Assembly (NCBI GenBank): GCA_964357615.1 | Contig: CAYHMC010000005.1 | Location: 24,064-88,063, forward strand | Length of the DNA stretch: 64,000 nucleotides | Direction: 5' to 3' | DNA from: an uncultured Candidatus Saccharibacteria bacterium | GTDB taxonomy: Bacteria; Patescibacteriota; Minisyncoccia; UBA6257; JACOXY01 | Part shown: positions 5,363 to 61,531 of the stretch, in pieces | Layout: each line of letters opens with the position of its first letter | Numbering within the stretch: position 1 is the first letter of the stretch | Translations under genes and position numbers: made by a program | The notes under the pieces: model-generated | Databases searched by the model: none | What the model was told of the DNA's origin: nothing | What the model saw: the letters and a program-made list of their open reading frames with translations, nothing else

Positions 5363-5942
5363 TACCAGATATCATTCGAAAACGTTTTATTAAATCTTCT
5401 CTTTTTTGATCATCGAAAGCACCATGTTCTGTTAACCATACAATAGCAAGTTTTGAGTTGGGTTTCTCTTCGTATAAAGAATTATAAAATCTGAAAAGTG
5501 GATCTGTTATATTTAATGCTGGCTTCTTTTGATACGGTTTTGCAAAAACAGTTTTTTGAATAGGAGTCATCGGATCGATTCCCTTAACCCATCTTTGTGC
5601 AAAATCAAGATGTTCTTTTCTGATATCGAATCTATTTAAAATATTATGAACTTCTTGTTTCAGTTTTATTGCCGGATTTTTAAATAAAGTATAAAGCCGT
5701 TTTCCTGCTATGAAAGCAGAATCAGAAATTCTTGTGTCACCTTGCATCTTACCTTTGAGAATATAAGAACAGTAGTAAGCGAACAAACATTGAACATATA
5801 TCGGAAGGTTAAGAAAGGCTTCAACATATTCTTTAGGTTTGTTCGATCTAAATTTCGAACAAAACAATTGCATATCTCTGCTAAGTTTCTCTTTGTCGAT
5901 TCCATCTATATCAATTGGATATTGCATACATTGTTCAGACAT
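5352..5942 (-). CDS. Hypothetical protein (196 aa)
   Basis: Long ORF on minus strand, convergent with 4592..5362 with an 11-nt overlap. No recognisable motif. Confidence 0.4.
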   Translation of the reverse strand: MSEQCMQYPIDIDGIDKEKLSRDMQLFCSKFRSNKPKEYVEAFLNLPIYVQCLFAYYCSYILKGKMQGDTRISDSAFIAGKRLYTLFKNPAIKLKQEVHNILNRFDIRKEHLDFAQRWVKGIDPMTPIQKTVFAKPYQKKPALNITDPLFRFYNSLYEEKPNSKLAIVWLTEHGAFDDQKREDLIKRFRMISGISK

Positions 5943-5963
5943 TTTATTTTATAAAAAATAAAA

Positions 5964-7595
5964 TTAAAATTTCCATGACGATCTCGTTTCTACAGCCCAT
6001 CTAAATTTCAATAAATTAGAACTATTGTAAATTTTTTCAATAGGAACTTCAACTGTTTTTGCCCATGCAACAACTATTCTTGGGTCTATGTAATTAACTT
6101 TACTTGTAATGGTGCTTAGATTTTCATTTTTTTCTATTAATTTTATTTTGTAGTCTTCGATCTTCTTTAAAGAAGATTCTTTTTGTTTGTCGGTTTGAGC
6201 TTGGTTTAAATTTATTGTTTCTTTTTCGATTTTCAATTCGAGTTCTTTTATCGTTTGTTCATTGTCTTGATTTAATTTTTTATGATTCAAGGCTCTTGCA
6301 GTTTCTATATTGGCTTTTTTAAAAGCTTGTAATTTTACAGCATCACTATCGTTTACATCGATCTTTATTTCACTCAATTTATTTTGAAGAATCGAAGACG
6401 CTTTCCATGTTCTAAAAACTTTTGCTGTCAATCCTGGAACTATCGATTTTAAGTAATCGTTAAGAGAAACTGCATTGATGGTATCAAACACAAGATCATC
6501 TTCTTTTTTATTTTTAAGAAAAGAAGAAATTCGTTCGTAAAGAATAGGTGCAAAATTATATTGTTTATTGAATTCAATTGAACTTTTTCCGAAAAAGTTA
6601 ATTTGAATTTGATTATTTGGAAGCAATTTTATGTTTGAAACTTTTAAAGTTGTTAAACCAACTGTATCATTGTCTACAGTTTCATCTTTTTCTGTTCCAG
6701 GTCTTATAGCCATTTTATCGAGAAAGAACACAGCCATACCAAACTGTTGATTTCTGATATAAGGTGATTTTATATCAGCAGAATATCGGTTAATGATAAG
6801 GGGTAAATTCTCTTTTAGAGATCTTGCTTTATCAAATTTTACTGTATCGGATTCTTCAACATAAGGCGATGTGTTTCTATCAAGTGAGATGTAAACATAC
6901 GAGTTTGTGACATTATTTTTATATTTGGCGAGGTATGTTACGCTTGGTATAACTTCTTTTTTATACCAATCATTTCCGTGAACATTCGTTCCATTCACAG
7001 TAATTTCATTTGGTTTAAATCTTTTTTTGATTTTACCTCGAAGTTTGGAATCATGACCGATAAATAAACTTGGTGGTTGAACTCTGAAATTTCCAATTTT
7101 CATTGTCTGACCATCGATAATAGCCAACCCGAAATCTTCCTTTATTTGTTCTTTTTCTTCTTTTTCTTGTTTCTTTTCAGTGGGAAGCATCATACCTCTA
7201 ATTTCAGCTTTTTCTGTTTTGAAGGCGGAAACATAGTTCAACATATTCGAAAAATCTATTTTATTAAAATCAACTATTTCAGGGTGATGTTTCATTAGAA
7301 TAGGTTGCCAATCGTTCCAAAAATTTGCGTTGAATAAAGCATCAACCGTTTTTTTTCTTTTTGAAGATCTTGAACTTGATGACAGCCTTTCATCTTGCTC
7401 TTTAACAAGACAATATAAATAAGCACATTCTTCTGCAGATAGATTAAGATTGTTTTCTTTACTGTTCGCATTCAATTTGACTGGTTGACCATCATATGTT
7501 ATAAAAGCACCGTCAGGAAGGGGAACATACTCTTCTGGAAAAAGCGGACCACTATGTTCAAGTGTCTGCCAACGTATTTTTCCGCGTTTACTCAT
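5964..7595 (-). CDS. TOP1: DNA topoisomerase IB, eukaryotic (TOP1) type
   Basis: Blocks align with human TOP1 core and C-terminal domains: [35 protein letters not shown] vs [52 protein letters not shown] vs [17 protein letters not shown]; C-terminal [27 protein letters not shown] vs [27 protein letters not shown], including the catalytic Tyr. Confidence 0.85.
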   Translation of the reverse strand: [543 protein letters not shown]

Positions 7596-8836: not shown

Positions 8837-10570
8837 TCAATCGAAAAAAGGATGCTTCAAAGCTTCACTTGCGCTGATTCTAAGTTTCGGTTCTACCTCG
8901 AGCATTCGTTCAAGAAGATTGATAAAAAGATTTTTATCGGTTTCATTTTCGAACTTGGAATTCAAGACAATTTTATTTTTTGAAAATCTTGGAAACCAAA
9001 CATCTGTATTGGAAGAACACCAATCAACATCAAAAAAGTTATTTTTAATATACTCAAGACTGGGTGAACCATATTTTTGAAAAATTTCAAAAAGTATATG
9101 TATGTTACTTTTCTTTTCAAAAAGAGGAATCTTTTCAATCATTTCATAAAAAACACAACCAACACTCCAGATATCAATCTTATTATCGAAACGCGTGCAT
9201 TCAAGACACAGTTCTGGTGCTCTATACCATTTTGTGGTAAGTTCATTGTATCTTTCGATTGAATCGAAAGGATTATCAATGGAACTACCAAAATCTATGA
9301 TCTTAATCACATCATCGTTCGAAACAAGCATGTTAGACGGTTTCAGATCTGTATGAATTATATCTAAACTATGAAGATATTCTACACCCGATAATATCTG
9401 CTTAAAATATTTTTTAAGATCTGAAACAGAAAACTTTTTAGAAAGATAAAAGTCTCTCAAACATCTCTTATATAAAGGCATATAAAAACAAGTATTTATA
9501 TCGTTTACTTGAATATTTTTAATAGAAATAATATTTTCGTGGTTCATTCTGTTTAGAAAAGCAATTTCTCTTATAGCAGACGGGCAAACACCAGAATTAT
9601 TTTCAATGACTTTCACGGCTACATCATGGTTTGCTAATCGAAAAACATTAGAAAAAGCCCCGTTACCAATTTCTTTCTTTTTTGAATCAAAATCAAAAAC
9701 TAAAACGGATTCCATATTTTTAAGATTTGTTTCATACTTTACTTTACTTTTTTTAGAAACGATTTTAAAAGAACTAACAACATTGTTATTAATATTGTTT
9801 ATCAAAGATAAACATTTTGAAGACAGGATAGAGACATCTTTCTGATCTTTCAATTTCAGAAAAACCAGGCATGCATCAGCTTGTGTTTTTAGAGAAAAAA
9901 AATTAAACTCGCTTTGACTTAGAACAATACTTAAACAAGTTTCAAGGTTTGATGCTAGTTCTTTATCATAAAAATTATTTAATCGAAAAAAAGACATAAT
10001 CGAAGTGTATTCAAAGTCGACTTTAAGATTATCCAAAATAAACGTTTCAAAATGAAAAATAACATCCTTTTCTGTTTCCGAATATTTATTAAATAATTGT
10101 TTTCGAATATCAAAGTATATAAATTTACTTGCAATAACAAAACAAGCCATTAATTCTAGTTCATTTACATTCTTGCATTGTCTAACGTGAATGAACTTAT
10201 CAAAAATAGTTATTGTCAAACAAAGAATCAAAAAATTCATTTCATCATGGTTGAAAGTAGATTTATATTTTTCAATAAATTTTTTGACAACCGCGTTTCT
10301 GTTTGAACAAAAGCTGTTTTCAAAAGAAAAAACATCTTTTGCATTCGATTCTTTAAAACAACAATTCGGTTTCTTTTTTTCTTTATTTAAGATAACTTTT
10401 TGAGCTTTATATGTGTCTTTCTTTTTTCTTAAAACAAAACAAAAATCATCACTATTATAACTGCGAATTTCTTTTTTTTCATATGAATCTGATTCTGGTA
10501 TTTTGTCAAGTTCAGATTTATCAAAACACAAAATATAGTTGTAAAAATCATCTTCATATCTAACTTCCAT
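8837..10570 (-). CDS. Ser/Thr protein kinase, CDK-like, with N-terminal cyclin-box-like domain (577 aa)
   Basis: C-terminal kinase motifs: GNGAFSNVF (Gly loop), AVKVI (beta-3 Lys), HTDLKPSNMLV (catalytic loop), DFGSS, WYRAPE, DIWSVGCV. N-terminal ~250 aa shows cyclin-box-like blocks (LELMACFVIASKFIYFDI vs cyclin LQLVGTAAMLIASKFEEI; EKDVIFHFETFILDNLKVDF). Confidence 0.8.
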   Translation of the reverse strand: MEVRYEDDFYNYILCFDKSELDKIPESDSYEKKEIRSYNSDDFCFVLRKKKDTYKAQKVILNKEKKKPNCCFKESNAKDVFSFENSFCSNRNAVVKKFIEKYKSTFNHDEMNFLILCLTITIFDKFIHVRQCKNVNELELMACFVIASKFIYFDIRKQLFNKYSETEKDVIFHFETFILDNLKVDFEYTSIMSFFRLNNFYDKELASNLETCLSIVLSQSEFNFFSLKTQADACLVFLKLKDQKDVSILSSKCLSLINNINNNVVSSFKIVSKKSKVKYETNLKNMESVLVFDFDSKKKEIGNGAFSNVFRLANHDVAVKVIENNSGVCPSAIREIAFLNRMNHENIISIKNIQVNDINTCFYMPLYKRCLRDFYLSKKFSVSDLKKYFKQILSGVEYLHSLDIIHTDLKPSNMLVSNDDVIKIIDFGSSIDNPFDSIERYNELTTKWYRAPELCLECTRFDNKIDIWSVGCVFYEMIEKIPLFEKKSNIHILFEIFQKYGSPSLEYIKNNFFDVDWCSSNTDVWFPRFSKNKIVLNSKFENETDKNLFINLLERMLEVEPKLRISASEALKHPFFD

Positions 10571-10580
10571 CTTGCCTTTC

Positions 10581-10620
10581 TTTTAAAATTTTTCAAAAAA
10601 ATTTTAAAATCATTTTTTAA
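10581..10620 (-). promoter_or_regulatory. Class-1 upstream motif (minus-strand orientation) for kinase gene 8837..10570
   Basis: In gene orientation reads AAAAAATGATTTTAAAATTTTTTTGAAAAATTTTAAAAGAAAGGCAAG then ATG. Confidence 0.5.
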
Positions 10621-10645: not shown

Positions 10646-12397
10646 TTACTCGAACAACGGATGTTTCAACGCTTCTGAAGCGCTGATTCGTTTTTCTGGG
10701 ATCACTTGAAGCAACTTTGAAAGAAGATCTAGAAAATTCGTTCTGTCGTTTTCAATCTCAAATTTATATCGGATTGTCAATGGTTTAACGATAGGATTTG
10801 GAAACCATGAAAAGGGAAGATCTCGTTCCATATAATATGTATTATCAGACAAGGCGTATTCTTCCTTTGTTGGTTTTCCAATTTTTGAGAAAATTTTTAA
10901 CAATGTTTCGAAGTTGCTTTTGGCTGAAAACAATGGAATTTTTTCAACCATATCATAAAAAACACAACCGATACTCCACATGTCAATTTTATTGTCGAAA
11001 GTAAGACATTCAAGACATAATTCAGGTGCACGATACCATAAAGTTGTAAATTCGTCACCGTAACGATGACTCATTCCATTCAAGTTACACACTGAATTTC
11101 CAAAATCAATTATCTTTACAATTCCATCTTTTGAAACCATGATGTTACTTGGTTTGAGATCGGTATGAATTATACCTAGTTTGTGAAAATATTCTACGCC
11201 TCTCAAAATCTGTTTGAAAAGATTTTTAATTGTTGAAAAGTTAAGCTTATTATCGTTAACAAAATCACGTAAATTACGAGGATGATAATCCATGAAAAAG
11301 CAAACATCACTTTCGTTTACACTTATATTTTTAATAAAAATAATATTTTCATGTTCTAGTTTAGGTAGAAAAGCCATTTCACGAATGGCAGACGGACATA
11401 CGCCATCATGGTCAGATTTAATAACTTTGACAGCCAATTCATTTTCGATTTTAAAAACACAACCGTAAGAACCAGCTTCTAAACGTGTTTTTTTGTTCAT
11501 ATCGAATGAAGAAGAACAATTTGTTTTGTTTTCAATCTTATTGTTGGTTTGTTTAGTTTTTTTGGAAATAATTTTGAAAGAAAACAATTTACCATCATGA
11601 ATTTGCTTCAATAAATCAGAACATTTTTTAACACTTTCTGTCTGCGTGATAGCAATTCTTTTGAAATTGATCAAAGAAAGGCATGCATCAGCTTGAGTTT
11701 TATATGAGAAAAAACTAAACTCTGTATTCGTCAGCAAAATTTTGAGATATGGTTCGATTTCATTGATTTCAGACACAGTCAAAATGTAATAATCGATAAA
11801 TGAAAAAACTGACATGTGATCAAAGTTGTATTTAATCGATTCCAAAATATAACTTTCATAATGAATGATAGTATCTCTATCGGCTTCAGAAAAAGTTTCA
11901 AATCTTTCAGATATCTCACGTTGATATGTGACAAAATAATTAAACTTGTGTGCAATGAGAATACAAGCCATGAATTGTAGTTCATTAATGTTTTTAATTT
12001 TTTTGATATAAATAAAATTATCAAAGATGCGAGAAGCTAGAAAAAGATTTTTTAGATTTCTACAACCAATAACTTCTGTTTTTGGTTGAAAAAACAATTT
12101 GATAAATTTCAACATTATGCTGTGCCTGTTTCTTTTATGATTAATTACATTAGGAATGACATCTTTGAGATCGGTTGTGTTAACGATTTTTTTACCATCC
12201 ATTAAAAATTTTTCGTTAGAAATAAAATCGTCTTTTTTAACTTTATCATCGCTTTCATTTTTTCTTTTTCTATAGAAAAACGATTCTCGATTATAACTGA
12301 TAACGTTTTTATATTCATAATTTTTTTTAAGTAGAGAATCGTTTAATTTAGAACAGACAACATAATCATAAACATCATCTTCATAATTCACTTCCAT
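10646..12397 (-). CDS. Ser/Thr protein kinase, CDK-like, with N-terminal cyclin-box-like domain (583 aa); tandem paralog of 8837..10570
   Basis: Same architecture and motifs: GSYGCVFK, AVKVI, HTDLKPSNIMV, DFGNS, WYRAPE; N-terminal LQFMACILIAHKFNYF block. Both paralogs start MEV.YEDD.Y.Y and end SASEALKHP.F. Confidence 0.8.
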   Translation of the reverse strand: MEVNYEDDVYDYVVCSKLNDSLLKKNYEYKNVISYNRESFFYRKRKNESDDKVKKDDFISNEKFLMDGKKIVNTTDLKDVIPNVINHKRNRHSIMLKFIKLFFQPKTEVIGCRNLKNLFLASRIFDNFIYIKKIKNINELQFMACILIAHKFNYFVTYQREISERFETFSEADRDTIIHYESYILESIKYNFDHMSVFSFIDYYILTVSEINEIEPYLKILLTNTEFSFFSYKTQADACLSLINFKRIAITQTESVKKCSDLLKQIHDGKLFSFKIISKKTKQTNNKIENKTNCSSSFDMNKKTRLEAGSYGCVFKIENELAVKVIKSDHDGVCPSAIREMAFLPKLEHENIIFIKNISVNESDVCFFMDYHPRNLRDFVNDNKLNFSTIKNLFKQILRGVEYFHKLGIIHTDLKPSNIMVSKDGIVKIIDFGNSVCNLNGMSHRYGDEFTTLWYRAPELCLECLTFDNKIDMWSIGCVFYDMVEKIPLFSAKSNFETLLKIFSKIGKPTKEEYALSDNTYYMERDLPFSWFPNPIVKPLTIRYKFEIENDRTNFLDLLSKLLQVIPEKRISASEALKHPLFE

Positions 12398-12406
12398 ATT
12401 GTCTTC

Positions 12407-12445
12407 TTTTTAAAATTTTTTAAAAATTTTAAAAATCATTTTTTA
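12407..12445 (-). promoter_or_regulatory. Class-1 upstream motif for kinase gene 10646..12397
   Basis: In gene orientation reads ATAAAAAATGATTTTTAAAATTTTTAAAAAATTTTAAAAGAAG then ATG. Confidence 0.5.
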
Positions 12446-13383: not shown

Positions 13384-13998
13384 TTAATCGAAAGTAAGAA
13401 TCGCTGATTCTACTTTCGTTTTACAAAGTGGACAATCGTTATTACAAGCGATCTGCTGTGTTTGTTTTAGACAAGAGTTACAATAACAGACATGACCACA
13501 TGGAATAAGAACAATAACTTTTTTATTGTCGCAACAAAAAATACATTGTTCATCCTGTTTGTCTGTTTTGGTATCTTTGAAATTTTTAGTTTCATTAAGC
13601 ACTTTAATTGGCTTCTTTTTTTGTCTCTCTTTATTCTCTTTATTTTCACTGTTGATCATCATCATATATTCCTTGAAGCTGTTTTTGATGTATTCATTTT
13701 CCATCTGTTGCAACATCTCGTTTTTATCTTGTTTGTTTTCTGTTTCAGGATCAGGTTGAAAACCATATTGTTGACATAGATCTTGTGTAACCCAATCGTA
13801 AGGAACAAAAGTTTTTTTGGAAATTCTTCCAATCACTCTTTTATCCAGCTTAGACTTAAAAACAAGTTTGGAGCGAAAATCATAATACATTTTCAATGAT
13901 CGATTAAAAGAAACTTTTGAAAGGTCATTGAAAGCAGGAACAATCAAAATTTGATTGTTTACTTCGTTTACTTCATTTAACTTGTTTTCAACTTGCAT
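13384..13998 (-). CDS. RING-finger (C3HC4, IAP-type) protein, putative E3 ubiquitin ligase
   Basis: C-terminus CIFCCDNKKVIVLIPCGHVCYCNSCLKQTQQIACNNDCPLCKTKV matches the RING-HC spacing with the CGH signature. Class-1 motif upstream at 14007..14042. Confidence 0.7.
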   Translation of the reverse strand: MQVENKLNEVNEVNNQILIVPAFNDLSKVSFNRSLKMYYDFRSKLVFKSKLDKRVIGRISKKTFVPYDWVTQDLCQQYGFQPDPETENKQDKNEMLQQMENEYIKNSFKEYMMMINSENKENKERQKKKPIKVLNETKNFKDTKTDKQDEQCIFCCDNKKVIVLIPCGHVCYCNSCLKQTQQIACNNDCPLCKTKVESAILTFD

Positions 13999-14067
13999 TT
14001 TTGTTTTGCAAAAAAAATTTTTTTAAAATCATTTTTAAAAAATCAAACGACAATGATGCCTATAAAA

Positions 14068-44023: not shown

Positions 44024-45838
44024 ATGTTTCAATCTAATAATCTCAATCCAGAAAACAACATCACAATCATAGGTATAGGTAAGCTTGGTTTATGCACTGC
44101 TTTATGTTTCGAAGCAAGAGGTTACAATGTTCTTGGAGTCGACGTCTCAGAAAATTATGTGAACAATTTAAACGATAAGACATTTACGTCTTCAGAACCA
44201 TTTGTTAATGCGTATTTAAAACAATCGACAAACTTTCAAGCTACAACAGACCTTGAAAGAGGTTTACGACATTCATCAAATCTTATTTTTATTGTTGTTC
44301 CAACACCCACACAAAAAGGTTCTAATACATACGATCATAATATTCTTATTAATCTTTTATCAAGTATAAATGAGCACAAAGTTAAGAATAAACACATTGT
44401 TATTTGTTGCACCGTAATGCCTGGTTTCATTACAAAGATCGCAAAATTTCTGATTAAAGACTGTGAAAATACCTTTCTCGCTTATAATCCAGAATTCATA
44501 GCACAAGGAAGTATCATTCATGATTTTGTCAACGCAAGTATGGTTCTAATTGGTGCAGAAAAAAAAGAAACTAGTGACGTGCTTCGAAAAATATATGAGA
44601 AAGTAGCCGATAATGCACGAATCTGTGTAATGAGTATCGAATCTGCAGAAATCGCAAAAATAGCTTTGAACTGTTTCATCACGACCAAAATTGCTTTTGC
44701 AAATATGATTGGTGATATTGCAGATAACACAGAAAATGCAAACAAAAATGATATTCTATTTGCAATAGGTTCTGATCCCAGAATTGGAAATAAATGTTTG
44801 AAGGCTGGATTTGGGTTTGGTGGCCCTTGTTTTCCAAGAGACAATCGAGCTTTAGCACACTATGCTCATTCTGTCAAAGTTTTTCCTTTTATTCCACTTG
44901 CAACAGACGAATCTAATAAGTTTCATACAGAAATCCAGTTTGAAGAATATGACAGAAAAAAAGATCCGATAGTTCTTGAAAATGTTGGATATAAGAACCC
45001 ATGTCCAGTTCCGATTATTGAAGAATCGCAAAAGTTAATTATAGCAGACAAACTAGCTTCAAACAATCACAAAGTTATTATCGTAGATCATGATCATATT
45101 CTAAACGAGGTTAAAAAGGTTTACAATGACAAGTTTACTTATGTTTCAAAAGACAAACTTCTTCATAAAATATATATTTCTCACTATTCAAAACTCAAAG
45201 ATAGAAGGGAATTTATGGATCAGCAATTGAAAAATCATAAAATAATAGATCTTGCACCTATTGATTGGATCGATTTTTACGATAGAGAAGACATAACAGA
45301 AGATCAGATTCGAAAAAATTTTAAATACAATCCACAGATTTGTCCAAGACATCTTACGATGGCTGAAATAGCTAATTTTATGGGTCATGCCCACGCCATA
45401 GAAGAAATTGCAAATAATGAAAGTGTATTGACAGGAATGATCATCGAAGATGATATGATTTTTAAACAAAACTACGTTAAGCACCTTGAATATGCTTTCA
45501 AAATAGTTCCTTCAAACTGGGATATCATTGTTGTTGGTGGTGCTTTTCATGGTGGTAAAGATTGCACTTTGAAAGACCAATACGACGATCCGAAAAAATT
45601 TCATATTTACAGACCATCTTCACCGTTTGTTTGCACAGGAAATTATATTATGCATAAAGAATCTGCTAAAAAAATAGTTTCATCGCCTTTTTTCAAACCA
45701 TTTTCAGCGCCTATCGACGACACTCTTTGTAAAATTGCTTCATCCCTTCATTTTAATGTTTATTGGTGTCGACCTTGGTTTTCTCTTGAAGGAAGTAAAA
45801 CTGGTAAATATGAAAGTGTAGCTGGAAGAGGTTTTTAA
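44024..45838 (+). CDS. Bifunctional UDP-glucose/GDP-mannose 6-dehydrogenase (N-terminal) fused to a glycosyltransferase family 25-like domain (C-terminal)
   Basis: N-terminal IIGIGKLGLCTALCF (NAD Rossmann GxGxxG) and GFGFGGPCFPRD (UGDH catalytic Cys motif GFGGSCFxKD). C-terminal ~200 aa KIYISHYSKLKDRREFMDQQLKNH...LTMAEIANFMGHAHAIEEIAN resembles GT25 (LPS glycosyltransferase) N-terminal motifs. Confidence 0.65.
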   Translation: MFQSNNLNPENNITIIGIGKLGLCTALCFEARGYNVLGVDVSENYVNNLNDKTFTSSEPFVNAYLKQSTNFQATTDLERGLRHSSNLIFIVVPTPTQKGSNTYDHNILINLLSSINEHKVKNKHIVICCTVMPGFITKIAKFLIKDCENTFLAYNPEFIAQGSIIHDFVNASMVLIGAEKKETSDVLRKIYEKVADNARICVMSIESAEIAKIALNCFITTKIAFANMIGDIADNTENANKNDILFAIGSDPRIGNKCLKAGFGFGGPCFPRDNRALAHYAHSVKVFPFIPLATDESNKFHTEIQFEEYDRKKDPIVLENVGYKNPCPVPIIEESQKLIIADKLASNNHKVIIVDHDHILNEVKKVYNDKFTYVSKDKLLHKIYISHYSKLKDRREFMDQQLKNHKIIDLAPIDWIDFYDREDITEDQIRKNFKYNPQICPRHLTMAEIANFMGHAHAIEEIANNESVLTGMIIEDDMIFKQNYVKHLEYAFKIVPSNWDIIVVGGAFHGGKDCTLKDQYDDPKKFHIYRPSSPFVCTGNYIMHKESAKKIVSSPFFKPFSAPIDDTLCKIASSLHFNVYWCRPWFSLEGSKTGKYESVAGRGF

Positions 45839-45875
45839 AAAATGATTTTAAAAATTTTTTTTAAAAAAAATAAAA

Positions 45876-52193: not shown

Positions 52194-54533
52194 ATGAACA
52201 ACTGTAATGAAAGAGATGTGCTAATATCGCTCGGTAATTCTTCACACTGCTTTAACCCTGAAGAAGTTAAGGAGTGGTTCAAAGTATCTTACGCGGATCA
52301 AAAAGAATTTGTTATTTTTACTCAAAACAGAAAGATTGTCTTTGAAAAATGGAAGAAAGATATTCCACATTTTCTTATTCCTCAACTAAATGGTATGGTT
52401 GATTTTAGTTTCAAAGACGCAATTAAGCATGAAAATAAAAAGTTTGAATTTAAAGCTTCAAAAGATAACCGTGTTTACTATTTATCGGAAAGTGAACACT
52501 CTTTACCTTATCGTTTTTTTTCCTTTACTATTATTCAAGGTGATGAAATAAAAGAGGTAATTCCCTCTAATCCTATTCTTGCAAAATGTGTTGATAAACA
52601 AGATTTTTTAAAAAACGATCTCGTCTTCAATAAAGATATTATTATTTTTTTCGTTACAAGTGTAAATCGAAAAGCTTTAGATGCTATTGAAAAGTTATTT
52701 AACGATGAATTCAAAAATACAGACCGTGCAATCCCTATACAAAAATTAAATTTAAATGTTAAGTTTATAAATGGTGTCACTCAGATCGTTAAAAAATATT
52801 TTAAAGATTACCCTGAAAGGGTATCAACTATAATTAAAAACATAAAATTTTTTATGGAAGATAAATCAACCCAACAAAGCGGAGTAACTTTTGGAAAATT
52901 TTTAGATATGAAACATATCGTTTCATTGTCTTCAAATGGGCTTCAAACAGTAAATACAGAATCGTATATGTGTGCAACAAAATCGAATATTAAAGAGCTG
53001 ATGAAAAGTAATTATTCATACGCCGTGAGAAAAGGGTCATTTAGATTGAATAGATACAAAAACTTACGACAAAACCCAGAAATACAAAACATGATTCTAC
53101 ATCCAGAACAGCAGGATCCTAACAATCCATTATTCGCAGAATATCAAGCTTTGGAAAATCAATACCAAGTCTTACTTAATAATCTTGACAACGCTGATCA
53201 TTGTCTTTATAAAGTTATTTATCACTACTGGATAGATGGGTTTGCAAAACTTATTGACGATTTCAATGTAATCAACCTGATCGAAATGCCATTACCAACT
53301 TTATTGATAAACAAGCACGATGTGTCTGTTATAACAACATATTATAAAGCTTTACCAAGTTCATTCATGGTCATCAGTGACACATACGAAGAAAGTAATG
53401 AAAACGGAATACAAGTTTTCTTAGAGACGAAAGAAAGGGAGCAGAAAGAAGAAGAAAAATTTGTTATGGTTGAAGATGAAAAAGAACGGAAGGAAAACGA
53501 AAGAACTTTTATATTGATAAATCCATTAACATATGCTCGAGCTAATATGAGTGATATTGGACCCGGAACGGTGTTTCAGATTAACGTAAAGAATTACAAT
53601 GGTGTTGAAAAGCAAGACGAGTTTATTAAAACTATTTTTGGTATAGGAATGAAAACGAAAATAAACAATACACTTATATATGAGAACGACAACAGTGTTA
53701 TACACTTCGAAAGTTTTGGTCAGGAATATAATCAAGACACATTCAACCCAGCTATATATTTGTATAAATTCAACCCTAATAATACGTTTGAATTTAATTT
53801 ATATAAAATTGCAAATTTTTATGAAGATGTTCGTGATATTGACGAAAAAGAAAATTATTACAAGTATCGTAATAAATTGGCATCTACCGATTTTATGATA
53901 GATTTTTTACAATCTGTAAGTGATGAAAGAGCAGAAAAAGATATTTTTATAAGACATTATTTGAAACAATCCACTGGTATCAAACTTAAAGATACACCAT
54001 CGAAAATTATTGTTATTGAAGATTATAAAAATAAGATCAACCTAGCAAGAGGAATTTACATATACACAACAGATGAAAAGGAAGTTAATGGTTACTTATC
54101 TAACGGGAACATAGAAGAGAAGGCGGAAACAGATGGGTATGATGATGATAAAATGATACTTTACAGAAACATGGATTTCAAGACTGATGATGGGGTTACA
54201 AGCATTCCATTTAAAATAGGAAATCATTGTTTATTGCCTGGGTTAACATTAATCATTTGTGATGATTTAATTCAAGGCAGAATTATACTTAATAAAAACA
54301 AAATTATTCCTTTATTTATTTTTTATGAAATAGAAGATGTTCAAGACGGAATTAACGATGGTGATGTTGAAAATGAAGATGCAGATGTTGATATAGAAGA
54401 GGATGAAAATGAAAGTAATGAAGGCAATGAAGGCGATGAAAGTAATGAAGGAGACGAAGGTGATGAAAGCGGAAATGAGTATGAAGGCGATGAAGGAGAC
54501 GGAAATGATGATCAGTTAATGTCAGATTTATAA
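52194..54533 (+). CDS. Paralog family A member 1 (779 aa), unknown function, poly-acidic C-terminal tail
   Basis: Conserved with the next two genes: N-terminus M..CNDKDV.IS..N.S.CF.PEEVK.WF...YADQ; ...QLNGMVDF.FKDAIKH.N.KFEFKAS; internal HYLKQSTGIKLKDTPSKIIV; C-terminal DE/GNE repeats. Start context AAAATAAAATG. Confidence 0.6.
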   Translation: MNNCNERDVLISLGNSSHCFNPEEVKEWFKVSYADQKEFVIFTQNRKIVFEKWKKDIPHFLIPQLNGMVDFSFKDAIKHENKKFEFKASKDNRVYYLSESEHSLPYRFFSFTIIQGDEIKEVIPSNPILAKCVDKQDFLKNDLVFNKDIIIFFVTSVNRKALDAIEKLFNDEFKNTDRAIPIQKLNLNVKFINGVTQIVKKYFKDYPERVSTIIKNIKFFMEDKSTQQSGVTFGKFLDMKHIVSLSSNGLQTVNTESYMCATKSNIKELMKSNYSYAVRKGSFRLNRYKNLRQNPEIQNMILHPEQQDPNNPLFAEYQALENQYQVLLNNLDNADHCLYKVIYHYWIDGFAKLIDDFNVINLIEMPLPTLLINKHDVSVITTYYKALPSSFMVISDTYEESNENGIQVFLETKEREQKEEEKFVMVEDEKERKENERTFILINPLTYARANMSDIGPGTVFQINVKNYNGVEKQDEFIKTIFGIGMKTKINNTLIYENDNSVIHFESFGQEYNQDTFNPAIYLYKFNPNNTFEFNLYKIANFYEDVRDIDEKENYYKYRNKLASTDFMIDFLQSVSDERAEKDIFIRHYLKQSTGIKLKDTPSKIIVIEDYKNKINLARGIYIYTTDEKEVNGYLSNGNIEEKAETDGYDDDKMILYRNMDFKTDDGVTSIPFKIGNHCLLPGLTLIICDDLIQGRIILNKNKIIPLFIFYEIEDVQDGINDGDVENEDADVDIEEDENESNEGNEGDESNEGDEGDESGNEYEGDEGDGNDDQLMSDL

Positions 54534-54559: not shown

Positions 54560-56848
54560 ATGAGTTGCAACGACAAAGATATCTATGTTCTATACAATAA
54601 TTCTTCATACTGTTTTTCACCTGAAGAAGTGAAAATGTGGTTTGAGATACCTTATGCCAAACAAGAGAGTGGTGCTATTACTGAAAATATTAAAAAAGCT
54701 TACGAAATGTGGAAGAAAACACAACCGAGATTTCTTATTTCCCAGCTTAATGGTATGGTTGATTTTAATTTCAAAGACGCTATTAAACATGGAAATAATA
54801 AGTTTGAATTTAAAGCTTCTAACCAAGTCGAAAATTATTATTTATCTAAAGAGAAATATAACTTACCTTACCATTCCCTTTCTTTTAAAATTCTCGAAGA
54901 ACAACTTGGTCTTGAAATTAAAGAAGTTGTTCCGTCTTCTTCAATGCTTCAAAGATGCTACAGTAAAAAAGATTTATCGGGAACAACCGATATAGTATTT
55001 GACAATAACACGATTGTTTTTTATACAACGACAATCAATAAACCTGCTTGGAACGAGATTCTTGGATTTTGTGAAAATTGGTTCCAGAATCCTGGTTTAT
55101 TACTAAATATGGCTATAGAACCAGAATTTATGGGTCAACTTACAAAAATCGTTAAAAAATATTATAGCAATTATGCAAATATAGTTTGTAACATACTGAA
55201 AAATCTCAAAGTAAATATGGGCAAATACCCGAAAGATTTTACGTTTGTAAAATTTATGAGAGGAACGGATTTTAGATTTTCTTTTGTAAATGAATTACAA
55301 ACTGCTAATACGGATTCTTACAATTGTTTTTCGAAAACAGATCTTGTTAACATGATAATCAATAAATATGCGGTTAATCAAGAGTCGTTTAAATATAACA
55401 GATATATTGAACTTGAAAATAAACTACAACATCAAATCGGACTTTATCAAGCCAATCCAAACCAGGGTCATGCTTTTATTAATCATCCTTTGTTTCAAGA
55501 GTATCTCAAACTAGCTAACGAATACAGAATTTTAATTGATAAGTTGAAAGAGCATGACAAATGCTTTCACAACATTCTTTATCTTTGGATCGATGAAAGC
55601 CTAATTGAAGTTCTTAAAAATAATTTCAACACGATCAATTTAGTTGAAATGCCTTATGATGTCACGCTTTTAACAAAAGACAATTCCAATGTGAAAACTT
55701 CATTTTACAAGGCATGTCCAAGTTCACGTTATATACTTGAAAAAAATGATAACGATGTTGATAATTTAAATTTTGAAACTAATATGGTAGGTGAATATAT
55801 TTTCTTTCAAATGATGGAAGATGAAAAAGAAAGAAAACCAAACGAAAGAAAGTTTAGATTGATTAATGTTTTAACGAATAAATTTGTGGATATAAACGAT
55901 ATTGAAAACAAAACTATTTTGGAAAGTATTGTAAAAACCTTTGATTTCGGTATTGAAAAGAAAATTGAATATTATGTGCAAAGTGGAGAGATAATTGAAA
56001 CTAAAGTATTTGTCAATAACAACATGATTTGTCAGCAAGAATATGAAGATAACGAATGTGTTTTTTTTGTTTTTGGTCAAGAGTATACCATCGGGTGTTC
56101 GATTGGTATGTTTGTATACTCGTTTGACTTCAATAATATAATCAGTATGAAAAGTTTTAAGAATGGTGGAGAAGAACGTTATCGTAATATACTTGCAAAA
56201 GAAGGATTTTTTGCGGAATATGTAGACGCTGAAGAAGGCGAAGCGAGGTTGAATAAAGATATCTTTATAAAACATTATTTGACGCATTCTACTGGTATCA
56301 AACTTAAAGATACACCATCAAGAATTATAGTGTTCGATAACATGGAAAACAAAAAAAGAATTCAAAGGGGTGCGTATGTTCTTATCAGCACTTTTCTTGG
56401 AGATGATCAAGATAATTTGGAAGAATTTAAAAATCAAGATTTCGAAGATGAAATTACAAGAATTTTTTGTTCTGGGGATGAAGATATGCTTATACTCTAT
56501 AAAAATATGAATTTCAAGGGTGATGGTGGAAGCTTAGATATTCCAGTTAAAATAGGTCAACACACCATGGCAGAAGGCTTAACTTTTATAATTTGCGATG
56601 ACTTAGTTGAAGCCAAAATTCTATTTGCAACATATAAAACGCAACCAAAGTTTTTATTTTTTGAAATTGAAGAAATTCAAGACAGTATTAGGGATGAAGA
56701 TGTCGAAAATGAAGGAGAATTTATAGATGAGCACATTAATATTGGAGGCGGAGAAAATGAGAATGTAGTATTCGTTGATGACAACGAAGAACAGATTGAG
56801 GGCAACGATGAAGACGAAGAAGACGAAGACGAAGATGAAAACAATTAA
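54560..56848 (+). CDS. Paralog family A member 2 (762 aa)
   Basis: Same conserved blocks (HYLTHSTGIKLKDTPSRIIV; acidic tail DEDEEDEDEDEN). Preceded by palindrome TAAATTTTTTAAAAAAATTTA and ATAAATAAAATG. Confidence 0.6.
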   Translation: MSCNDKDIYVLYNNSSYCFSPEEVKMWFEIPYAKQESGAITENIKKAYEMWKKTQPRFLISQLNGMVDFNFKDAIKHGNNKFEFKASNQVENYYLSKEKYNLPYHSLSFKILEEQLGLEIKEVVPSSSMLQRCYSKKDLSGTTDIVFDNNTIVFYTTTINKPAWNEILGFCENWFQNPGLLLNMAIEPEFMGQLTKIVKKYYSNYANIVCNILKNLKVNMGKYPKDFTFVKFMRGTDFRFSFVNELQTANTDSYNCFSKTDLVNMIINKYAVNQESFKYNRYIELENKLQHQIGLYQANPNQGHAFINHPLFQEYLKLANEYRILIDKLKEHDKCFHNILYLWIDESLIEVLKNNFNTINLVEMPYDVTLLTKDNSNVKTSFYKACPSSRYILEKNDNDVDNLNFETNMVGEYIFFQMMEDEKERKPNERKFRLINVLTNKFVDINDIENKTILESIVKTFDFGIEKKIEYYVQSGEIIETKVFVNNNMICQQEYEDNECVFFVFGQEYTIGCSIGMFVYSFDFNNIISMKSFKNGGEERYRNILAKEGFFAEYVDAEEGEARLNKDIFIKHYLTHSTGIKLKDTPSRIIVFDNMENKKRIQRGAYVLISTFLGDDQDNLEEFKNQDFEDEITRIFCSGDEDMLILYKNMNFKGDGGSLDIPVKIGQHTMAEGLTFIICDDLVEAKILFATYKTQPKFLFFEIEEIQDSIRDEDVENEGEFIDEHINIGGGENENVVFVDDNEEQIEGNDEDEEDEDEDENN

Positions 56849-56883: not shown

Positions 56884-59118
56884 ATGAGCAAGTGTAACGA
56901 TAAAGATGTTATGATATCTTACGAAAATAAGACTTATTGTTTTTCACCAGAAGACGTGAAAGAGTGGTTTGAGATACCTTATGCCGATCAGAAAGGTGAA
57001 ATAAGTTCACTTTCGGAAAATAAAAAAAATGTTTTTGAGACATGGAAGAAAACACAACCAAAATTTCTTATTTCCCAGCTTGATGGTATGGTTGATTTTA
57101 ATTTCAAAGATATGATCAAAAATGGTGTGAACAAATTTGTTATTAACCGGTCTTCAAAGTCATATTTCTACTTGAACGAAAGTCAATATAACATACCGTA
57201 TCTCATGTTTGATTTTGATGAGATTAAAAATAACGAAGAAAAAGAAAAAGAAATAAAAGAAAGAATTCCGTCTTTCTCAATGCTTGAGAAATGTTATAAC
57301 AAAAAAGATTTATTAGAAAACGATATTGTGTTTGACAATAACACGATTGTTTTCTTTATTACGAAAATCCATCGTCAAGCTTTACGTGAGGTTGAAAATT
57401 TATTGGAAGAATGGATTAATAAAAATATGTTTTTTTATTTATATTTAGAAGAACTTGAATTTAAACCTATGATTACGAGTGAACTTTCTCTTATTGTTAA
57501 AAAATATTTCAAAGATTACGTTACAAGAGCATCAGCTATAATCAGAAATTTTAAGATGTTAACGAGTAACTCCAACTTTGTAAAGAAGACACTAACTGTC
57601 TCAAATTTTTTAAAATCTGGTGATATGAAATCTTTAATCGCAACTGAGCTTCAGATTGTAGATATCGATTCCTACAACTGTATTACAATATCAGATATCA
57701 ATAGAATAATGAAAGAAGAATATAGGGTAAATCAAGGTTCGTTTAATTATTATAGATATTTGCATCTTGAAAATACGTTGCAAGATGAAATTAAAAATTA
57801 CAATGATGGTGTAAATATTTTTCAATTTGATGATAATCCTTTATTCAAGGAGTATGTGGAATTACTGGAAGAATATAGAAGACTTGAAAGTATGTTAACT
57901 GATAAAAAAAGTGTTCGTTTCTGTAAACTTTTATATTATTGGATTGAAGACTTGGACAGTGTCATTAGAAATAAATTTAATACAATCAACCTTGTTGAGA
58001 TGCCTAATAACGTGATTTTATTTGGTAAGCAAAAAACCGATTTCAAAACGATATATTACAAAGCATGTCCAAGTTCACGTCTTATGATTTCAAACGAAAA
58101 TGATAATTTTCAAATGAAAGATACGTTTAATATCTTTGTTTTGATTGAAGATGAAAAACAAAGAAACGAAGATGAAAAGATGTTTAGATTATTTAACACA
58201 TCTACAAATCAGTTTGTAAAATATAGAGAAGAGGAAGATAATATTGAAGGTGGTATGATGGTAGAAATGAAAATAAAATATTTTAATTTCGGTATTGAAA
58301 AGAAAGATGAATTCTTTAAAATTCCAGATCCTAAAAATGATCGCCTAGGATTTGGAATGAAAACATTAGTAAATAATAAAATGATATATGAAAACAGTCG
58401 TAAACCCGTATTTTCTGTTTTTGGAAAGGAATATATTATTGACACTTACAAGGCCATATATGTGTATTCGTTCGATGCAAATAATATCATTGATCTGAAA
58501 GTTTTCAAAACCGAAAACGACTATTACGATCGTGAAAATTATGATAGAGATCACAATGAGTTGGCTGGCGAAGATGAATTTATGGCTGAATATTTAGAAT
58601 CTGAAGGCAAAGAAAGAGTTGAAAAAGATCTTTATATAAGAAATTATCTAAACGATATCACTGGTGTAAAACTCAAAGATACACCAACCAAATTGTTGAC
58701 TGGGCTTTTTGAAGATGGAATGACTGTACCAAAAGGTGTTTATATATACGTGAATGGCAACGATATGGAAGATGAAAGTCACATAACATCTGATATTGAA
58801 CGTGATGTAGAAACAAATGGATCTGACAATGATATACTATTACTTTATAGAAATATGGATTTTCAAGGTGATGGTGGGATTGTGAGTATTCCTGTTAAAA
58901 TAGGAAATCACAACCTCGAAAGCGGGGTAACTTTAATTATTTGTGATGACTTAGTTGAATTCAAATTTGCATTCAGTGCTGGAGGTAATTTAATGCCAAA
59001 ATTTGTCTATTATGAAATAGAAGATGTTCAAGACAGTCTTAAAGACGAAAGCGAGGACGAAGACAGAAGTGAAAATGAAGACGAAGACAGAAGTGAAAAT
59101 GAAGACAATGATATTTAA
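56884..59118 (+). CDS. Paralog family A member 3 (744 aa)
   Basis: Same conserved blocks (NYLNDITGVKLKDTPTKLL; acidic tail with 24-bp direct repeats). Preceded by perfect palindrome ATTCTAAAAAATTTTTTAGAAT and TAAATG. Confidence 0.6.
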   Translation: MSKCNDKDVMISYENKTYCFSPEDVKEWFEIPYADQKGEISSLSENKKNVFETWKKTQPKFLISQLDGMVDFNFKDMIKNGVNKFVINRSSKSYFYLNESQYNIPYLMFDFDEIKNNEEKEKEIKERIPSFSMLEKCYNKKDLLENDIVFDNNTIVFFITKIHRQALREVENLLEEWINKNMFFYLYLEELEFKPMITSELSLIVKKYFKDYVTRASAIIRNFKMLTSNSNFVKKTLTVSNFLKSGDMKSLIATELQIVDIDSYNCITISDINRIMKEEYRVNQGSFNYYRYLHLENTLQDEIKNYNDGVNIFQFDDNPLFKEYVELLEEYRRLESMLTDKKSVRFCKLLYYWIEDLDSVIRNKFNTINLVEMPNNVILFGKQKTDFKTIYYKACPSSRLMISNENDNFQMKDTFNIFVLIEDEKQRNEDEKMFRLFNTSTNQFVKYREEEDNIEGGMMVEMKIKYFNFGIEKKDEFFKIPDPKNDRLGFGMKTLVNNKMIYENSRKPVFSVFGKEYIIDTYKAIYVYSFDANNIIDLKVFKTENDYYDRENYDRDHNELAGEDEFMAEYLESEGKERVEKDLYIRNYLNDITGVKLKDTPTKLLTGLFEDGMTVPKGVYIYVNGNDMEDESHITSDIERDVETNGSDNDILLLYRNMDFQGDGGIVSIPVKIGNHNLESGVTLIICDDLVEFKFAFSAGGNLMPKFVYYEIEDVQDSLKDESEDEDRSENEDEDRSENEDNDI

Positions 59119-59198: not shown

Positions 59199-60044
59199 TT
59201 ATTCAAAAATCATATCCACTTCAACACCATTCAAAAAAATCTCTTTATTGAAGATAGTTCCATCCGCGTTATAATTAATACAAGCTGGATTTGTATCACC
59301 ATTTTCATTCCTTGTTTCTCTGTGACATTTGTCGTTTTGCCACCATTCTTCACGCTTCTTATTGCCGTTTTTAAAATAATACTCCATTGTAGGTAAATCA
59401 TCGTTTCTATACAATTTTCCATTCAAATACCACATTTTTAATACTTCACCATCATCGCTACGATGTATCATGGCCGGCCCATTCCGTGGGTCTCTGTGAT
59501 TTTTATTGTTTTTACACCATTTTTCCTGTTTCACATCTCCGTTTTCTTCGAAATACACAAACACTGGAAGATCGGCATCTCTGTGGCATTCACCGTTTTG
59601 ATACCAACTTTCATATTGTTTGTTACCGTTCTTGTAATATGCTTTACAAGCCGGCGAAGCATCCCTGTGCATTTTTCCATTTTGATACCATACTTCACGT
59701 TCGATTCTTCCGTTTTTATAAAACTCAGTTACAGCTGGAAGATCGCCGTCTCTATGCATTTTTTTATTTTTGTAGAAAACTTCACGTTCCTTATTTCCAT
59801 TTTTATAATACACGATCAAATCAGGAAGCTTTTCATCATCGTGCTTTTCGTGCTTCGCTTTGTATTTGGTCCAATTTTCATACTTTTTTCCGTTTTTGTA
59901 AAAGACGATAACGTCTTTTTTCTCATTCTTAATTTCTTTCGGTTCTTCTCGTTTTCGTTTACGATTACAACGGTTCACTTCAGTAATCTCATTATTAGGC
60001 ATAACACCTCGTTTAACTTCAGTCATTCCATTCAAATTCATCAT
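59199..60044 (-). CDS. MORN-repeat protein (~281 aa)
   Basis: Repeats (V/F)(Y/F)YKNG..ERE.WYQNGK.HRD.DLPA. Track start 60059 is a TTG; the likely ATG is ~60044 (MMNLNGMTEV). Class-1 motif upstream (60050..60090). Confidence 0.75.
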   Translation of the reverse strand: MMNLNGMTEVKRGVMPNNEITEVNRCNRKRKREEPKEIKNEKKDVIVFYKNGKKYENWTKYKAKHEKHDDEKLPDLIVYYKNGNKEREVFYKNKKMHRDGDLPAVTEFYKNGRIEREVWYQNGKMHRDASPACKAYYKNGNKQYESWYQNGECHRDADLPVFVYFEENGDVKQEKWCKNNKNHRDPRNGPAMIHRSDDGEVLKMWYLNGKLYRNDDLPTMEYYFKNGNKKREEWWQNDKCHRETRNENGDTNPACINYNADGTIFNKEIFLNGVEVDMIFE

Positions 60045-60083
60045 TTTGATTTTTTTCAAAAAAATTTTTTAAAATCATTTTTT

Positions 60084-61472
60084 TTACAAGTAAATTTTAA
60101 TGACGTTTTTGTTTTCTTTTCTACATTTTGGACAAGTAAGATTGTTTATACTTGTATAACATTCATTGCAATAAACGAGATGACCACAATTTATAAGGGC
60201 AATTGATGGTTGATTAATAAGACAAATAACACATGTTGGTATACTTTTAGCTTCTTGAATAATTGGTTGTTCATACTCAAAACCATGTTGTTTACAAAGA
60301 TTAATACAGTCTTTATCGATAGGTTGAACAAAACCGTTTTTTAAAAATCCTTTTACAGTCAAATTATCCCTTGATTTAAATACCATAAATGTTGGATTGT
60401 GATAGTATACATTGTTCTTTTTCGAATACATAATTCCTTCGAAGAATGGACAATTCGAAATTGACTTTTCGATGTTGATAGGCAGATCATTTTCTGAAAA
60501 TTTAAGCACCAAACAGCCATCGCATTCAATTGCCATTAAGTTTCCGGGAATCTTAGGAAACCTACTTAACATACAATCACGGACGACCAGCGATTCAAGA
60601 CTCAAAGGAAGTTTTGGAATTTCAAGTAGTTTATCGTTTAAATTCATGATCAAATTGACAAGATTTTTTGGAAAGCTTTCAATGTGTTCAAGATCGCAAC
60701 AATTAGCCAAGTCTAAAGTTATCAAATCTCCCAAATGACTTAGTTTTCCTAGTTTTTTGATTGGTGTTTGGACGATGGTTAATTCTTGTAAAATTACAGG
60801 AAGATTTGGTAAATAAGTAATTTGAGTTCCACTACAGTTCAATACCAATAAACTTTTTGGAAGTTGTGGTAACGTTTTAATTGCTGTTTGTTCACAATGT
60901 AAATACAATAAATGTTCTGGTAGCTTTGGTAACTCTTTTATTTCGGTTGAAGAGCAATCCAATTCTGTCAACCCATTCGGAAGTTCAGGTAACCTTTCGA
61001 CTGGAGTGATTGAACATTTTAGACATTCAAGGGTTTTTGGAAGGTGCTTTATTTCTTTTACGTTTGTGTAACAAAAATTTAGATAAACCAGGTTTTCAGG
61101 AAGAATTGGAAGTTCTTCAATTTGTTCACAGTGATGTATGTCTAAACGAGTTAGACTTTTCGGTAATTTTGGAAGTTTTTTAAGAGATTGTGACTCGGTA
61201 AAACTTAAAAAAATTAATTGGTCTGGTAACTCTGGGATACGTTCAACTTCTGTTTTGTTGCATTCAAGATACACCAACGATTTTGGAATGGTTGGAAAAT
61301 TTCCAAGAGTTACTTTGTTGAACAACAATCGTTCAAGTGTATCTGGTAATTTTGGAAGATTTTTCAGTTCACAGTTTTCGAGATGTAAAGTTTTAAGTGT
61401 TTTCGGAAATACGAAAGGAATCTCGTTTCTGAACAAGTATAATTCAACGATTTCTTTGCTTTCAGTTGTCAT
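60084..61472 (-). CDS. LPX-type leucine-rich-repeat protein with C-terminal RING finger (462 aa), putative E3 ubiquitin ligase
   Basis: About 13 repeats of ~20-22 aa of the form LP(K/E)LP..L..L.C..T.I.., as in bacterial IpaH/SspH LPX-LRRs. C-terminal CVICLINQPSIALINCGHLVYCNECYTSINNLTCPKCRK is RING-HC. Class-1 motif upstream (61480..61520). Confidence 0.7.
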   Translation of the reverse strand: MTTESKEIVELYLFRNEIPFVFPKTLKTLHLENCELKNLPKLPDTLERLLFNKVTLGNFPTIPKSLVYLECNKTEVERIPELPDQLIFLSFTESQSLKKLPKLPKSLTRLDIHHCEQIEELPILPENLVYLNFCYTNVKEIKHLPKTLECLKCSITPVERLPELPNGLTELDCSSTEIKELPKLPEHLLYLHCEQTAIKTLPQLPKSLLVLNCSGTQITYLPNLPVILQELTIVQTPIKKLGKLSHLGDLITLDLANCCDLEHIESFPKNLVNLIMNLNDKLLEIPKLPLSLESLVVRDCMLSRFPKIPGNLMAIECDGCLVLKFSENDLPINIEKSISNCPFFEGIMYSKKNNVYYHNPTFMVFKSRDNLTVKGFLKNGFVQPIDKDCINLCKQHGFEYEQPIIQEAKSIPTCVICLINQPSIALINCGHLVYCNECYTSINNLTCPKCRKENKNVIKIYL

Positions 61473-61531
61473 TTTAAATTTTAAAAATTTAAAAAATTTT
61501 TAAAATCATTTTTATTTTTTTGTTAACACAA

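Follow-up and report, generated by a model that had tools for sequence, protein, structure and literature searches.

The LRR-SD-RING Gene and Its Leucine-Rich Repeats

We analyzed a 64,000-nucleotide (nt) stretch of contig CAYHMC010000005.1 (GenBank assembly GCA_964357615.1; the window), and in particular a complete reverse-strand gene at positions 60084..61472, which begins with ATG, ends with a stop codon at 60084-60086 in the list of open reading frames (ORFs), and encodes 462 amino acids. From its N-terminus, the protein consists of leucine-rich repeats (LRRs), a small globular domain that we call SD, and a RING finger, and it is hereafter referred to as LRR-SD-RING. An initial annotation, made by reading the DNA and its ORFs, had recognized the repeats and the RING finger; it had missed the conserved third domain between them and the giant-virus origin of the gene.

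The protein contains 15-16 repeats of 20-21 amino acids, which span residues ~19-346. Segmentation anchored on xPxLPxxLxxL gave 13 segments between residues 39 and 329, with a spacing of 20-21 amino acids in 12 of the 13; the remaining segment is 43 amino acids long (residues 221-263) and holds two repeats. Outside the anchored range there is one repeat upstream (residues 19-38) and a partial repeat downstream (residues 330-346). The array is divided into a regular LPX-class block (60753..61418, reverse strand; residues 19-240), composed of eleven repeats of 20-21 amino acids with the consensus LPxLPxxLxxLxCxxTxIxx, and an irregular C-terminal block (60435..60752, reverse strand; residues 241-346), composed of Cys-rich repeats of 20-25 amino acids and a partial capping repeat, in which C258, C300, C317, D318, and C320 are conserved in the family alignment. 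The two short repeats quoted as examples by the initial annotation were located at residues 100-120 and 161-180. Its statement that such repeats fill the N-terminal 380 amino acids proved too broad, as the array ends at about residue 346 and residues 347-402 form the separate SD domain.

The repeats had also been assigned to the LPX subtype of bacterial effectors, and profile, sequence, and fold comparisons all agreed with this assignment. A phmmer search of the LRR against all chains of the PDB matched YopM at 1.7e-48 and 1.4e-46, SspH2 at 1e-17, and the LRR domains of IpaH1.4/2.5/3/7.8/9.8 and SspH1 at 1e-11 to 1e-13. These scores are well above chance level, and every LRR among the 64 PDB matches with E<=1 is of the LPX class. 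In NCBIfam, the matches were to SspH2 (1.9e-21), SlrP (1.8e-10), and GogB/EspK, with those to SspH2 and SlrP covering the LRR part of the models only and scoring far below the family cut-offs. AlphaFold2 predicted residues 1-235 as an all-beta solenoid without convex-side helices at a predicted local distance difference test score (pLDDT) of ~98; the score was lower further on, i.e., <50 for residues 239-267 and ~80-90 for residues 280-320. When the LRR model was searched with Foldseek, the order of matches was YopM (E-value 2.5e-12), SspH2 (9.7e-11), YopM, and the giant-virus LRR protein CroV588, followed by SspH1, IpaH, and SlrP. Judged by sequence and by model, therefore, the repeats belong to the LPX class of YopM, IpaH, SspH, and SlrP. 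The xPxLPxxLxxL signature is found in most of them and, since the conserved Asn position is mostly occupied by Thr, Cys, or Ser (e.g., NKTEV, SSTEI, and EQTAI), the protein represents a variant of the LPX consensus. An N-terminal helical cap is a feature of YopM and IpaH; no such alpha-helical capping hairpin appears in the AlphaFold model, in which residues 1-9 are coil and residues 10-14 a strand. The nearest LRR-only relatives are bacterial (31-38% identity) and include NEL effectors of Salmonella and Providencia as well as proteins with T9SS, SLH, or SdrD domains.

The RING Finger

The C-terminus (60087..60236, reverse strand; residues 413-462) is an IAP/MUL1-type RING-HC finger with a C-terminal tail, as the initial annotation had proposed for its Cys/His pattern. 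Pfam zf-C3HC4_3 (PF13920) matched residues 413-455 with 41.6 bits against a cut-off of 27 (E 1.1e-10), and all eight zinc ligands are present and invariant in the family alignment (C414-x2-C417-x11-C429-x-H431-x3-C435-x2-C438-x8-C447-x2-C450). The pattern given earlier was in error at one point, in that H431 is followed by three residues before C435, not two. The RINGs of cIAP2 and cIAP1 aligned end to end with the viral RING, the terminal IKIYL of its tail aligning to VRTFL of the cIAPs. I416, P448, and R451 (within CPxCR) and Y461 match the corresponding cIAP2/cIAP1 residues and are likewise invariant in the family. We take these residues to be the E2-contact Ile and Pro, the linchpin Arg, and the tail aromatic, respectively, assuming the roles seen in the published RING-E2~ubiquitin structures 4auq, 3eb6, and 6hpr (E2, ubiquitin-conjugating enzyme). 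The RING was modeled by AlphaFold with a pLDDT of ~96 from an alignment of 46 sequences. By Foldseek, this model superposed on cIAP2, cIAP1, XIAP, BIRC7, and MUL1 with a root-mean-square deviation (rmsd) of 1.5-1.6 A at 31-40% identity; for cIAP2 (3eb5) in particular, the rmsd was 1.6 A over 52 columns with 38% identity.

The SD Domain and a Paralogous RING Gene

SD (60267..60434, reverse strand; residues 347-402) comprises ~55 amino acids between the LRR and the RING and is conserved throughout the family. An alignment of four full-length relatives gave the motif YYxxxSxLVFKSxxxxxVIGxxxNxxxxPLDKxxIxLCKxxGFxY, and an alignment of fifteen SD sequences was built; a local SD hidden Markov model (HMM) matched the domain of the LRR protein at 4.5e-26. 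AlphaFold, again from 46 aligned sequences, predicted five short strands followed by one helix (pLDDT ~90). A profile search of SD against PDB sequences returned noise only (E >0.7), Pfam gave nothing but a faint match of DUF7899 to one SD protein (P0274; 16 bits against a cut-off of 70), and PHROGs yielded unnamed LRR families only.

The window contains a second SD-RING gene that lacks LRRs (13384..13998, reverse strand; 204 amino acids), with SD at residues ~28-87 (13738-13917) and the RING at residues 149-198 (13405-13554). Its protein matched zf-C3HC4_3 (PF13920) at 5.6e-11 and the SD HMM at 3.3e-28. By BLASTP, it shares 38% identity with the LRR protein over 39 amino acids of the RING and 28% over 53 amino acids of the SD region (E 6e-5). 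The initial annotation was therefore right that a second RING protein of the IAP type lies here and wrong that it is unrelated; since SD and RING are common to both window proteins, the two are paralogous in their C-terminal module.

SD also occurs in other settings. It is joined to an IAP-type RING without LRRs in three proteins (P0121, P0125, and P0127), to a different RING type in another (P0256), and forms the N-terminus of coiled-coil proteins (P0153, P0187, P0198, and P0199); a 69-amino-acid protein (P0211) consists of SD alone. In three others (P0218, L007 at 5605-6438, and L008 at 5551-6528), SD follows a CCCH-like zinc motif and is itself followed by a long acidic tail. One of the SD-coiled-coil genes (P0187; 4001-4555 of contig L012), which comes from groundwater samples shared with the window protein, is followed 24 nt downstream by a RING-H2 gene. 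Considering this adjacency together with the SD-RING fusions, SD has been coupled to RINGs repeatedly.

Family Size and Rarity

A profile HMM that covers SD and RING was run against 1.84 billion representative proteins, and the best 150 matches were evaluated. Among these, only five clusters have the LRR-SD-RING architecture (P0001, that of the window protein, and P0002, P0003, P0122, and P0126), and all five are metagenomic. Two of them (P0003 and P0122) are tandem neighbors on one contig (L006), which, like a second contig with a homologue (L004), is AT-rich like the window. None of the other 106 closest RING proteins has an LRR, their partner domains including ankyrin repeats (8), BIR (7), GIDE (4), and MORN (3). 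These counts bear out the earlier remark that the domain combination is uncommon. No further family member turned up when IMG/VR, JGI metagenomes, and 185,579 prokaryotic genomes were scanned for patterns, the matches being SD or RING pieces at most. The SD alignment varied too much to provide a usable scan pattern, and a similarity search with it yielded one protein.

Genome Context, Upstream Motif, and Selection

The window has a GC content of 28-34% (~30% overall), short intergenic spacers, and genes on both strands. Its gene products include Rpb2, a eukaryotic-type topoisomerase IB, RNase III, a cathepsin-like protease, helicases, sugar enzymes, and two paralogous Ser/Thr kinases, and it carries tandem arrays of paralogues alongside a class-specific promoter-like motif. 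The genes identified in the window include none for a major capsid protein. Because of Rpb2, topoisomerase IB, the kinases, RNase III, the dense packing of genes, and the low GC content, we regard the window as part of a Nucleocytoviricota-like genome, probably related to Mimiviridae/Klosneuvirinae. An identical protein with the same neighbors occurs on at least three independent assemblies of Hainich H41 groundwater metagenomes (ENA ERZ1292619 and related runs), and the protein is present in an 89-kb NCBI record as well; nothing relevant on Hainich giant viruses was found in the literature.

The promoter-like motif AAAAATGATTTTAAAAATTTTTT lies ~40 nt upstream of the ATG of the LRR-SD-RING gene (61491..61513, reverse strand). 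Its general form is AAAAATGA(T/A)TTTTAAAAA(T)n, with the core AAAAATGA(T/A)TTT, and 54 matches with <=3 mismatches occur in the window against 8.8 expected. It precedes 18 of 60 genes, at -34 to -45 (once at -21), including both SD-RING genes, both kinases, two helicases, and RNase III; Rpb2, topoisomerase IB, and three large tandem ORFs lack it. The site upstream of the 204-amino-acid SD-RING gene is at 14014-14031 (reverse strand); further sites are at 60060-60077, 10595-10612, 12421-12438, and 63758-63775 on the reverse strand and at 45843-45860 on the forward strand. The motif is also kept upstream of LRR-SD-RING homologues on other contigs (L004, both copies on L006, and L011). By analogy, the resemblance of this motif type to the early promoter element of Mimiviridae, AAAATTGA, suggests expression early in infection.

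The LRR-SD-RING gene is under purifying selection. Compared with a 95%-identical orthologue (L011), the ratio of non-synonymous to synonymous substitution rates (dN/dS) was 0.23 overall, and the RING showed 0 non-synonymous and 6 synonymous differences. The differences to this orthologue cluster in residues 191-270, i.e., repeats 9-12 (60663-60902, reverse strand), where dS was 0.30, compared to 0.08 in residues 1-190 and 0 in residues 271-346; dN/dS in the segment was unchanged (~0.28). This clustering hints either at recombination within the patch or at locally rapid evolution of this part of the binding arm.

The gene sits between two paralogous repeat genes (59199-60059 and 61532-62431, both on the reverse strand; 36% identity), the products of which carry MORN/YwqK-like repeats of the form YxNGxKxxExWYxxGxxHRD and have no Pfam match at 1e-3. 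The LRR-SD-RING gene may perhaps have been inserted into this duplicated pair.

Proposed Function and Alternative Explanations

We consider it fairly likely that LRR-SD-RING serves a giant virus as a single-chain, target-directed E3 ubiquitin ligase of the RING type. What the results above establish is the identity of the domains, the intactness of the residues that support catalysis, the action of purifying selection, and how rare the architecture is; the mechanism is drawn from the families involved. The concave sheet of the LRR solenoid would bind a target protein, as the LRRs of IpaH, SspH1, and SlrP bind host proteins. By the same analogy, the target is probably a host protein; the partners in the matched LPX complexes are PKN1, thioredoxin, GSDMB, HOIP/HOIL-1L, and RNF213, all of them host proteins. 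The RING, in analogy to its cellular counterparts, would recruit a host UbcH5/UBE2D-like E2~ubiquitin through I416 and P448, with R451 presumably keeping the conjugate closed. The tail, IKIYL, resembles that of IAPs and suggests a dimeric RING, in which Y461 would act with R451 to activate transfer. Ubiquitin would then pass to the LRR-bound target and lead to its degradation or relocalization. SD, as an accessory module that recurs with RINGs in these viruses, probably serves in partner binding or in positioning the ligase, and the AAAAATGA-type motif would place expression early. Such a protein would not be out of place in a giant virus, in which repeat domains are commonly paired with ubiquitin-pathway domains (PMC10583209, PMC9525666).

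Several points weigh against this reading. In the full-length model, the arrangement of LRR, SD, and RING relative to each other is of low confidence and the C-terminal part has a pLDDT <50. With Asn replaced by Thr, Cys, or Ser, the detail of the solenoid may differ from that of YopM and IpaH, and LRRs can also bind non-protein ligands. RING dimerization is suggested by similarity to the IAP tail only. A simple motif scan of the window found no gene for an E2 (HPN...C) or for ubiquitin. Early expression is likewise a suggestion from motif analogy, and the exact Mimivirus early octamer AAAATTGA is not enriched in the window (14 matches against 35 expected).

An active RING E3 could also be directed at targets outside the host proteome, either the virus's own proteins (temporal turnover, or maturation of the factory or virion) or competitors within the same cell, such as a virophage or intracellular bacteria. 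The competitor case would be analogous to LRSAM1, a documented LRR-plus-RING ligase that acts on bacteria and whose LRR recognizes them (PMC8567218), and the closest LRR-only relatives of the viral protein are bacterial surface or secreted proteins. The recurrence of SD in proteins that resemble internal viral factors, with coiled coils (P0153, P0187, and P0198) or with a zinc finger and an acidic tail (L007 and L008), suggests a virus-internal interaction network. However, every matched solved LPX-LRR complex has a host partner, and the SAM/coiled-coil region of LRSAM1 is not present in the viral protein; we regard non-host targets as unlikely. The same RING similarity that points to a ligase might instead indicate an IAP-like regulator, in which the RING heterodimerizes or competes with host IAP/MUL1-type ligases or sequesters the E2, and the LRR is a decoy or scaffold. 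The viral RING is indeed closest to the dimeric RINGs of IAPs, MUL1, and IDOL and retains the C-terminal tail, and RINGs of the IAP type are widespread among viruses (baculo-, asco-, and iridoviruses and Klosneuvirinae). Pfam, however, detected no BIR domain, and the full retention of E2-contact and linchpin residues under strict purifying selection is the pattern expected of a catalytic RING. A conserved LRR of 330 amino acids would, moreover, be costly for a mere decoy, and such a regulatory role seems to us quite improbable.

Many repeat proteins of giant viruses have no known role, e.g., the FGxxFN LRRs of CroV (PMC9525666), and LRR-SD-RING might by the same token be a non-enzymatic structural or virion protein, with the LRR as scaffold and the Cys/His cluster as a generic zinc knuckle. 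This is very hard to reconcile with the spacing of the Cys/His ligands, the above-cut-off Pfam score, the 1.5 A fit to catalytic RINGs, and the conservation of I416, P448, and R451, and we give it little credence. Finally, since the LRR is closer to bacterial proteins than to any viral protein in the databases, the gene might be thought to have entered the contig through chimeric assembly or as a contaminant from a bacterium or eukaryote. The gene and its neighbors are nevertheless repeated on the three or more independent assemblies, and in GC content the gene matches the DNA around it. Upstream of it lies the promoter-like motif of this genome, which also precedes divergent homologues on other contigs that look viral, and a second viral gene (13384-13998) has the same C-terminal module. 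An artifact is thus scarcely conceivable.

Comparison with Known Systems

The closest parallel to the favored single-chain ligase is the group of IpaH, SspH1, SspH2, and SlrP effectors. Together with YopM, these have the same LRR subclass (LPxLP repeats of 20-21 amino acids in an all-beta solenoid) and gave the best sequence and fold matches, and the IpaH/SspH/SlrP proteins follow the same logic of a target-binding LRR arm and a ubiquitin-ligase domain in one chain. They use a NEL domain with a catalytic cysteine, however, whereas the viral protein has an E2-activating zinc RING; it also lacks the context of a secretion signal, has Thr, Cys, or Ser in place of most repeat Asn residues, and carries SD in addition. 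Membership in the NEL effectors was rejected, as Pfam found no NEL domain (PF14496) and NCBIfam matched the LRR part only. With cIAP1, cIAP2, XIAP, BIRC7, MUL1, and IDOL, the viral RING shares its subtype, the spacing of ligands, CPxCR, and the short aromatic tail; these proteins contain BIR, GIDE, or FERM domains, in place of which the viral protein has the LRR and SD. The absence of BIR in Pfam also excluded it from the IAPs proper.

The animal ligase LRSAM1 has the same domain order, with an N-terminal LRR and a C-terminal RING, and the same single-chain ligase logic (PMC8567218, PMC11863841). It has a coiled coil and SAM where the viral protein has the beta-rich SD, and the viral LRR is of the LPX class; the likeness is one of domain layout. 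Pfam found no SAM or coiled-coil family in the viral protein, the interval between LRR and RING being occupied by SD, and assignment to an LRSAM1-like family was rejected. The chlamydial NEX1b of amoeba symbionts likewise combines a RING/U-box with LRRs in an intracellular parasite of protists, and has an uncharacterized conserved region of ~50 amino acids between the two (PMC4209131). NEX1b is bacterial and of reversed order, with the RING/U-box N-terminal, and here too the likeness is one of domain layout. Among viral proteins, the Megavirus F-box-FGxxFN LRR proteins, CroV588, and ankyrin/F-box proteins follow the strategy of linking repeats with the ubiquitin pathway (PMC9525666, PMC10583209); these serve, through the F-box, as substrate receptors of host cullin ligases and have FGxxFN repeats of 22-23 amino acids, whereas LRR-SD-RING has its own RING and LPX repeats of 20 amino acids. 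Poxvirus p28, a KilA-N-plus-RING E3 targeted to virus factories, is a viral single-chain RING ligase with a non-catalytic targeting domain (PMC10583209). Its partner domain and RING subtype differ and it has no LRR, and the idea that SD is a comparable targeting module is speculation.

Many E3s and repeat proteins have already been described from giant viruses (PMC10583209); what is new here is the combination of an LPX LRR with a RING, and the SD domain. If the protein is active, a giant virus has reached the IpaH/SspH design, an LPX LRR arm wired to a ubiquitin ligase, with a RING replacing the NEL domain. This would be a case of convergent pathogen engineering, probably with mixing of genes between bacteria, protists, and viruses. 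SD, which occurs with two RING types and with other partners on virus-like metagenomic contigs, is a candidate for a new accessory or localization domain of ubiquitin ligases, although practical value is limited for now as the family is very rare. More tentatively, and with considerable doubt, one might picture LRR-SD-RING as a three-part chimera formed inside a giant virus from SD, an IAP-type RING, and an LRR of the bacterial-effector type gained horizontally in a bacterivorous protist. SD could then be a giant-virus-specific E3 accessory or targeting module, perhaps anchoring SD proteins to a viral hub or factory as KilA-N does for poxvirus p28, and the family could comprise early-expressed, rapidly duplicating degraders of host proteins that realize the IpaH design by a different chemistry.

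Other Genes of the Window

The three large ORFs without the upstream motif (52194-54533, 54560-56848, and 56884-59118, all on the forward strand) are tandem paralogues of 744-779 amino acids with ~40% pairwise identity, each of which has an acidic tail and no Pfam match. The Ser/Thr kinases are also in tandem (8837-10570 and 10646-12397, both on the reverse strand; 43% identity), each with an uncharacterized N-terminal region of ~290 amino acids. A forward-strand gene at 44024-45838 encodes a 604-amino-acid fusion of a UDP-glucose/GDP-mannose dehydrogenase to a family-25 glycosyltransferase domain. The RNase III domain protein (62440-63741, reverse strand; 433 amino acids) has a C-terminal extension that appears ankyrin-like by eye, at a level below Pfam detection at 1e-3.

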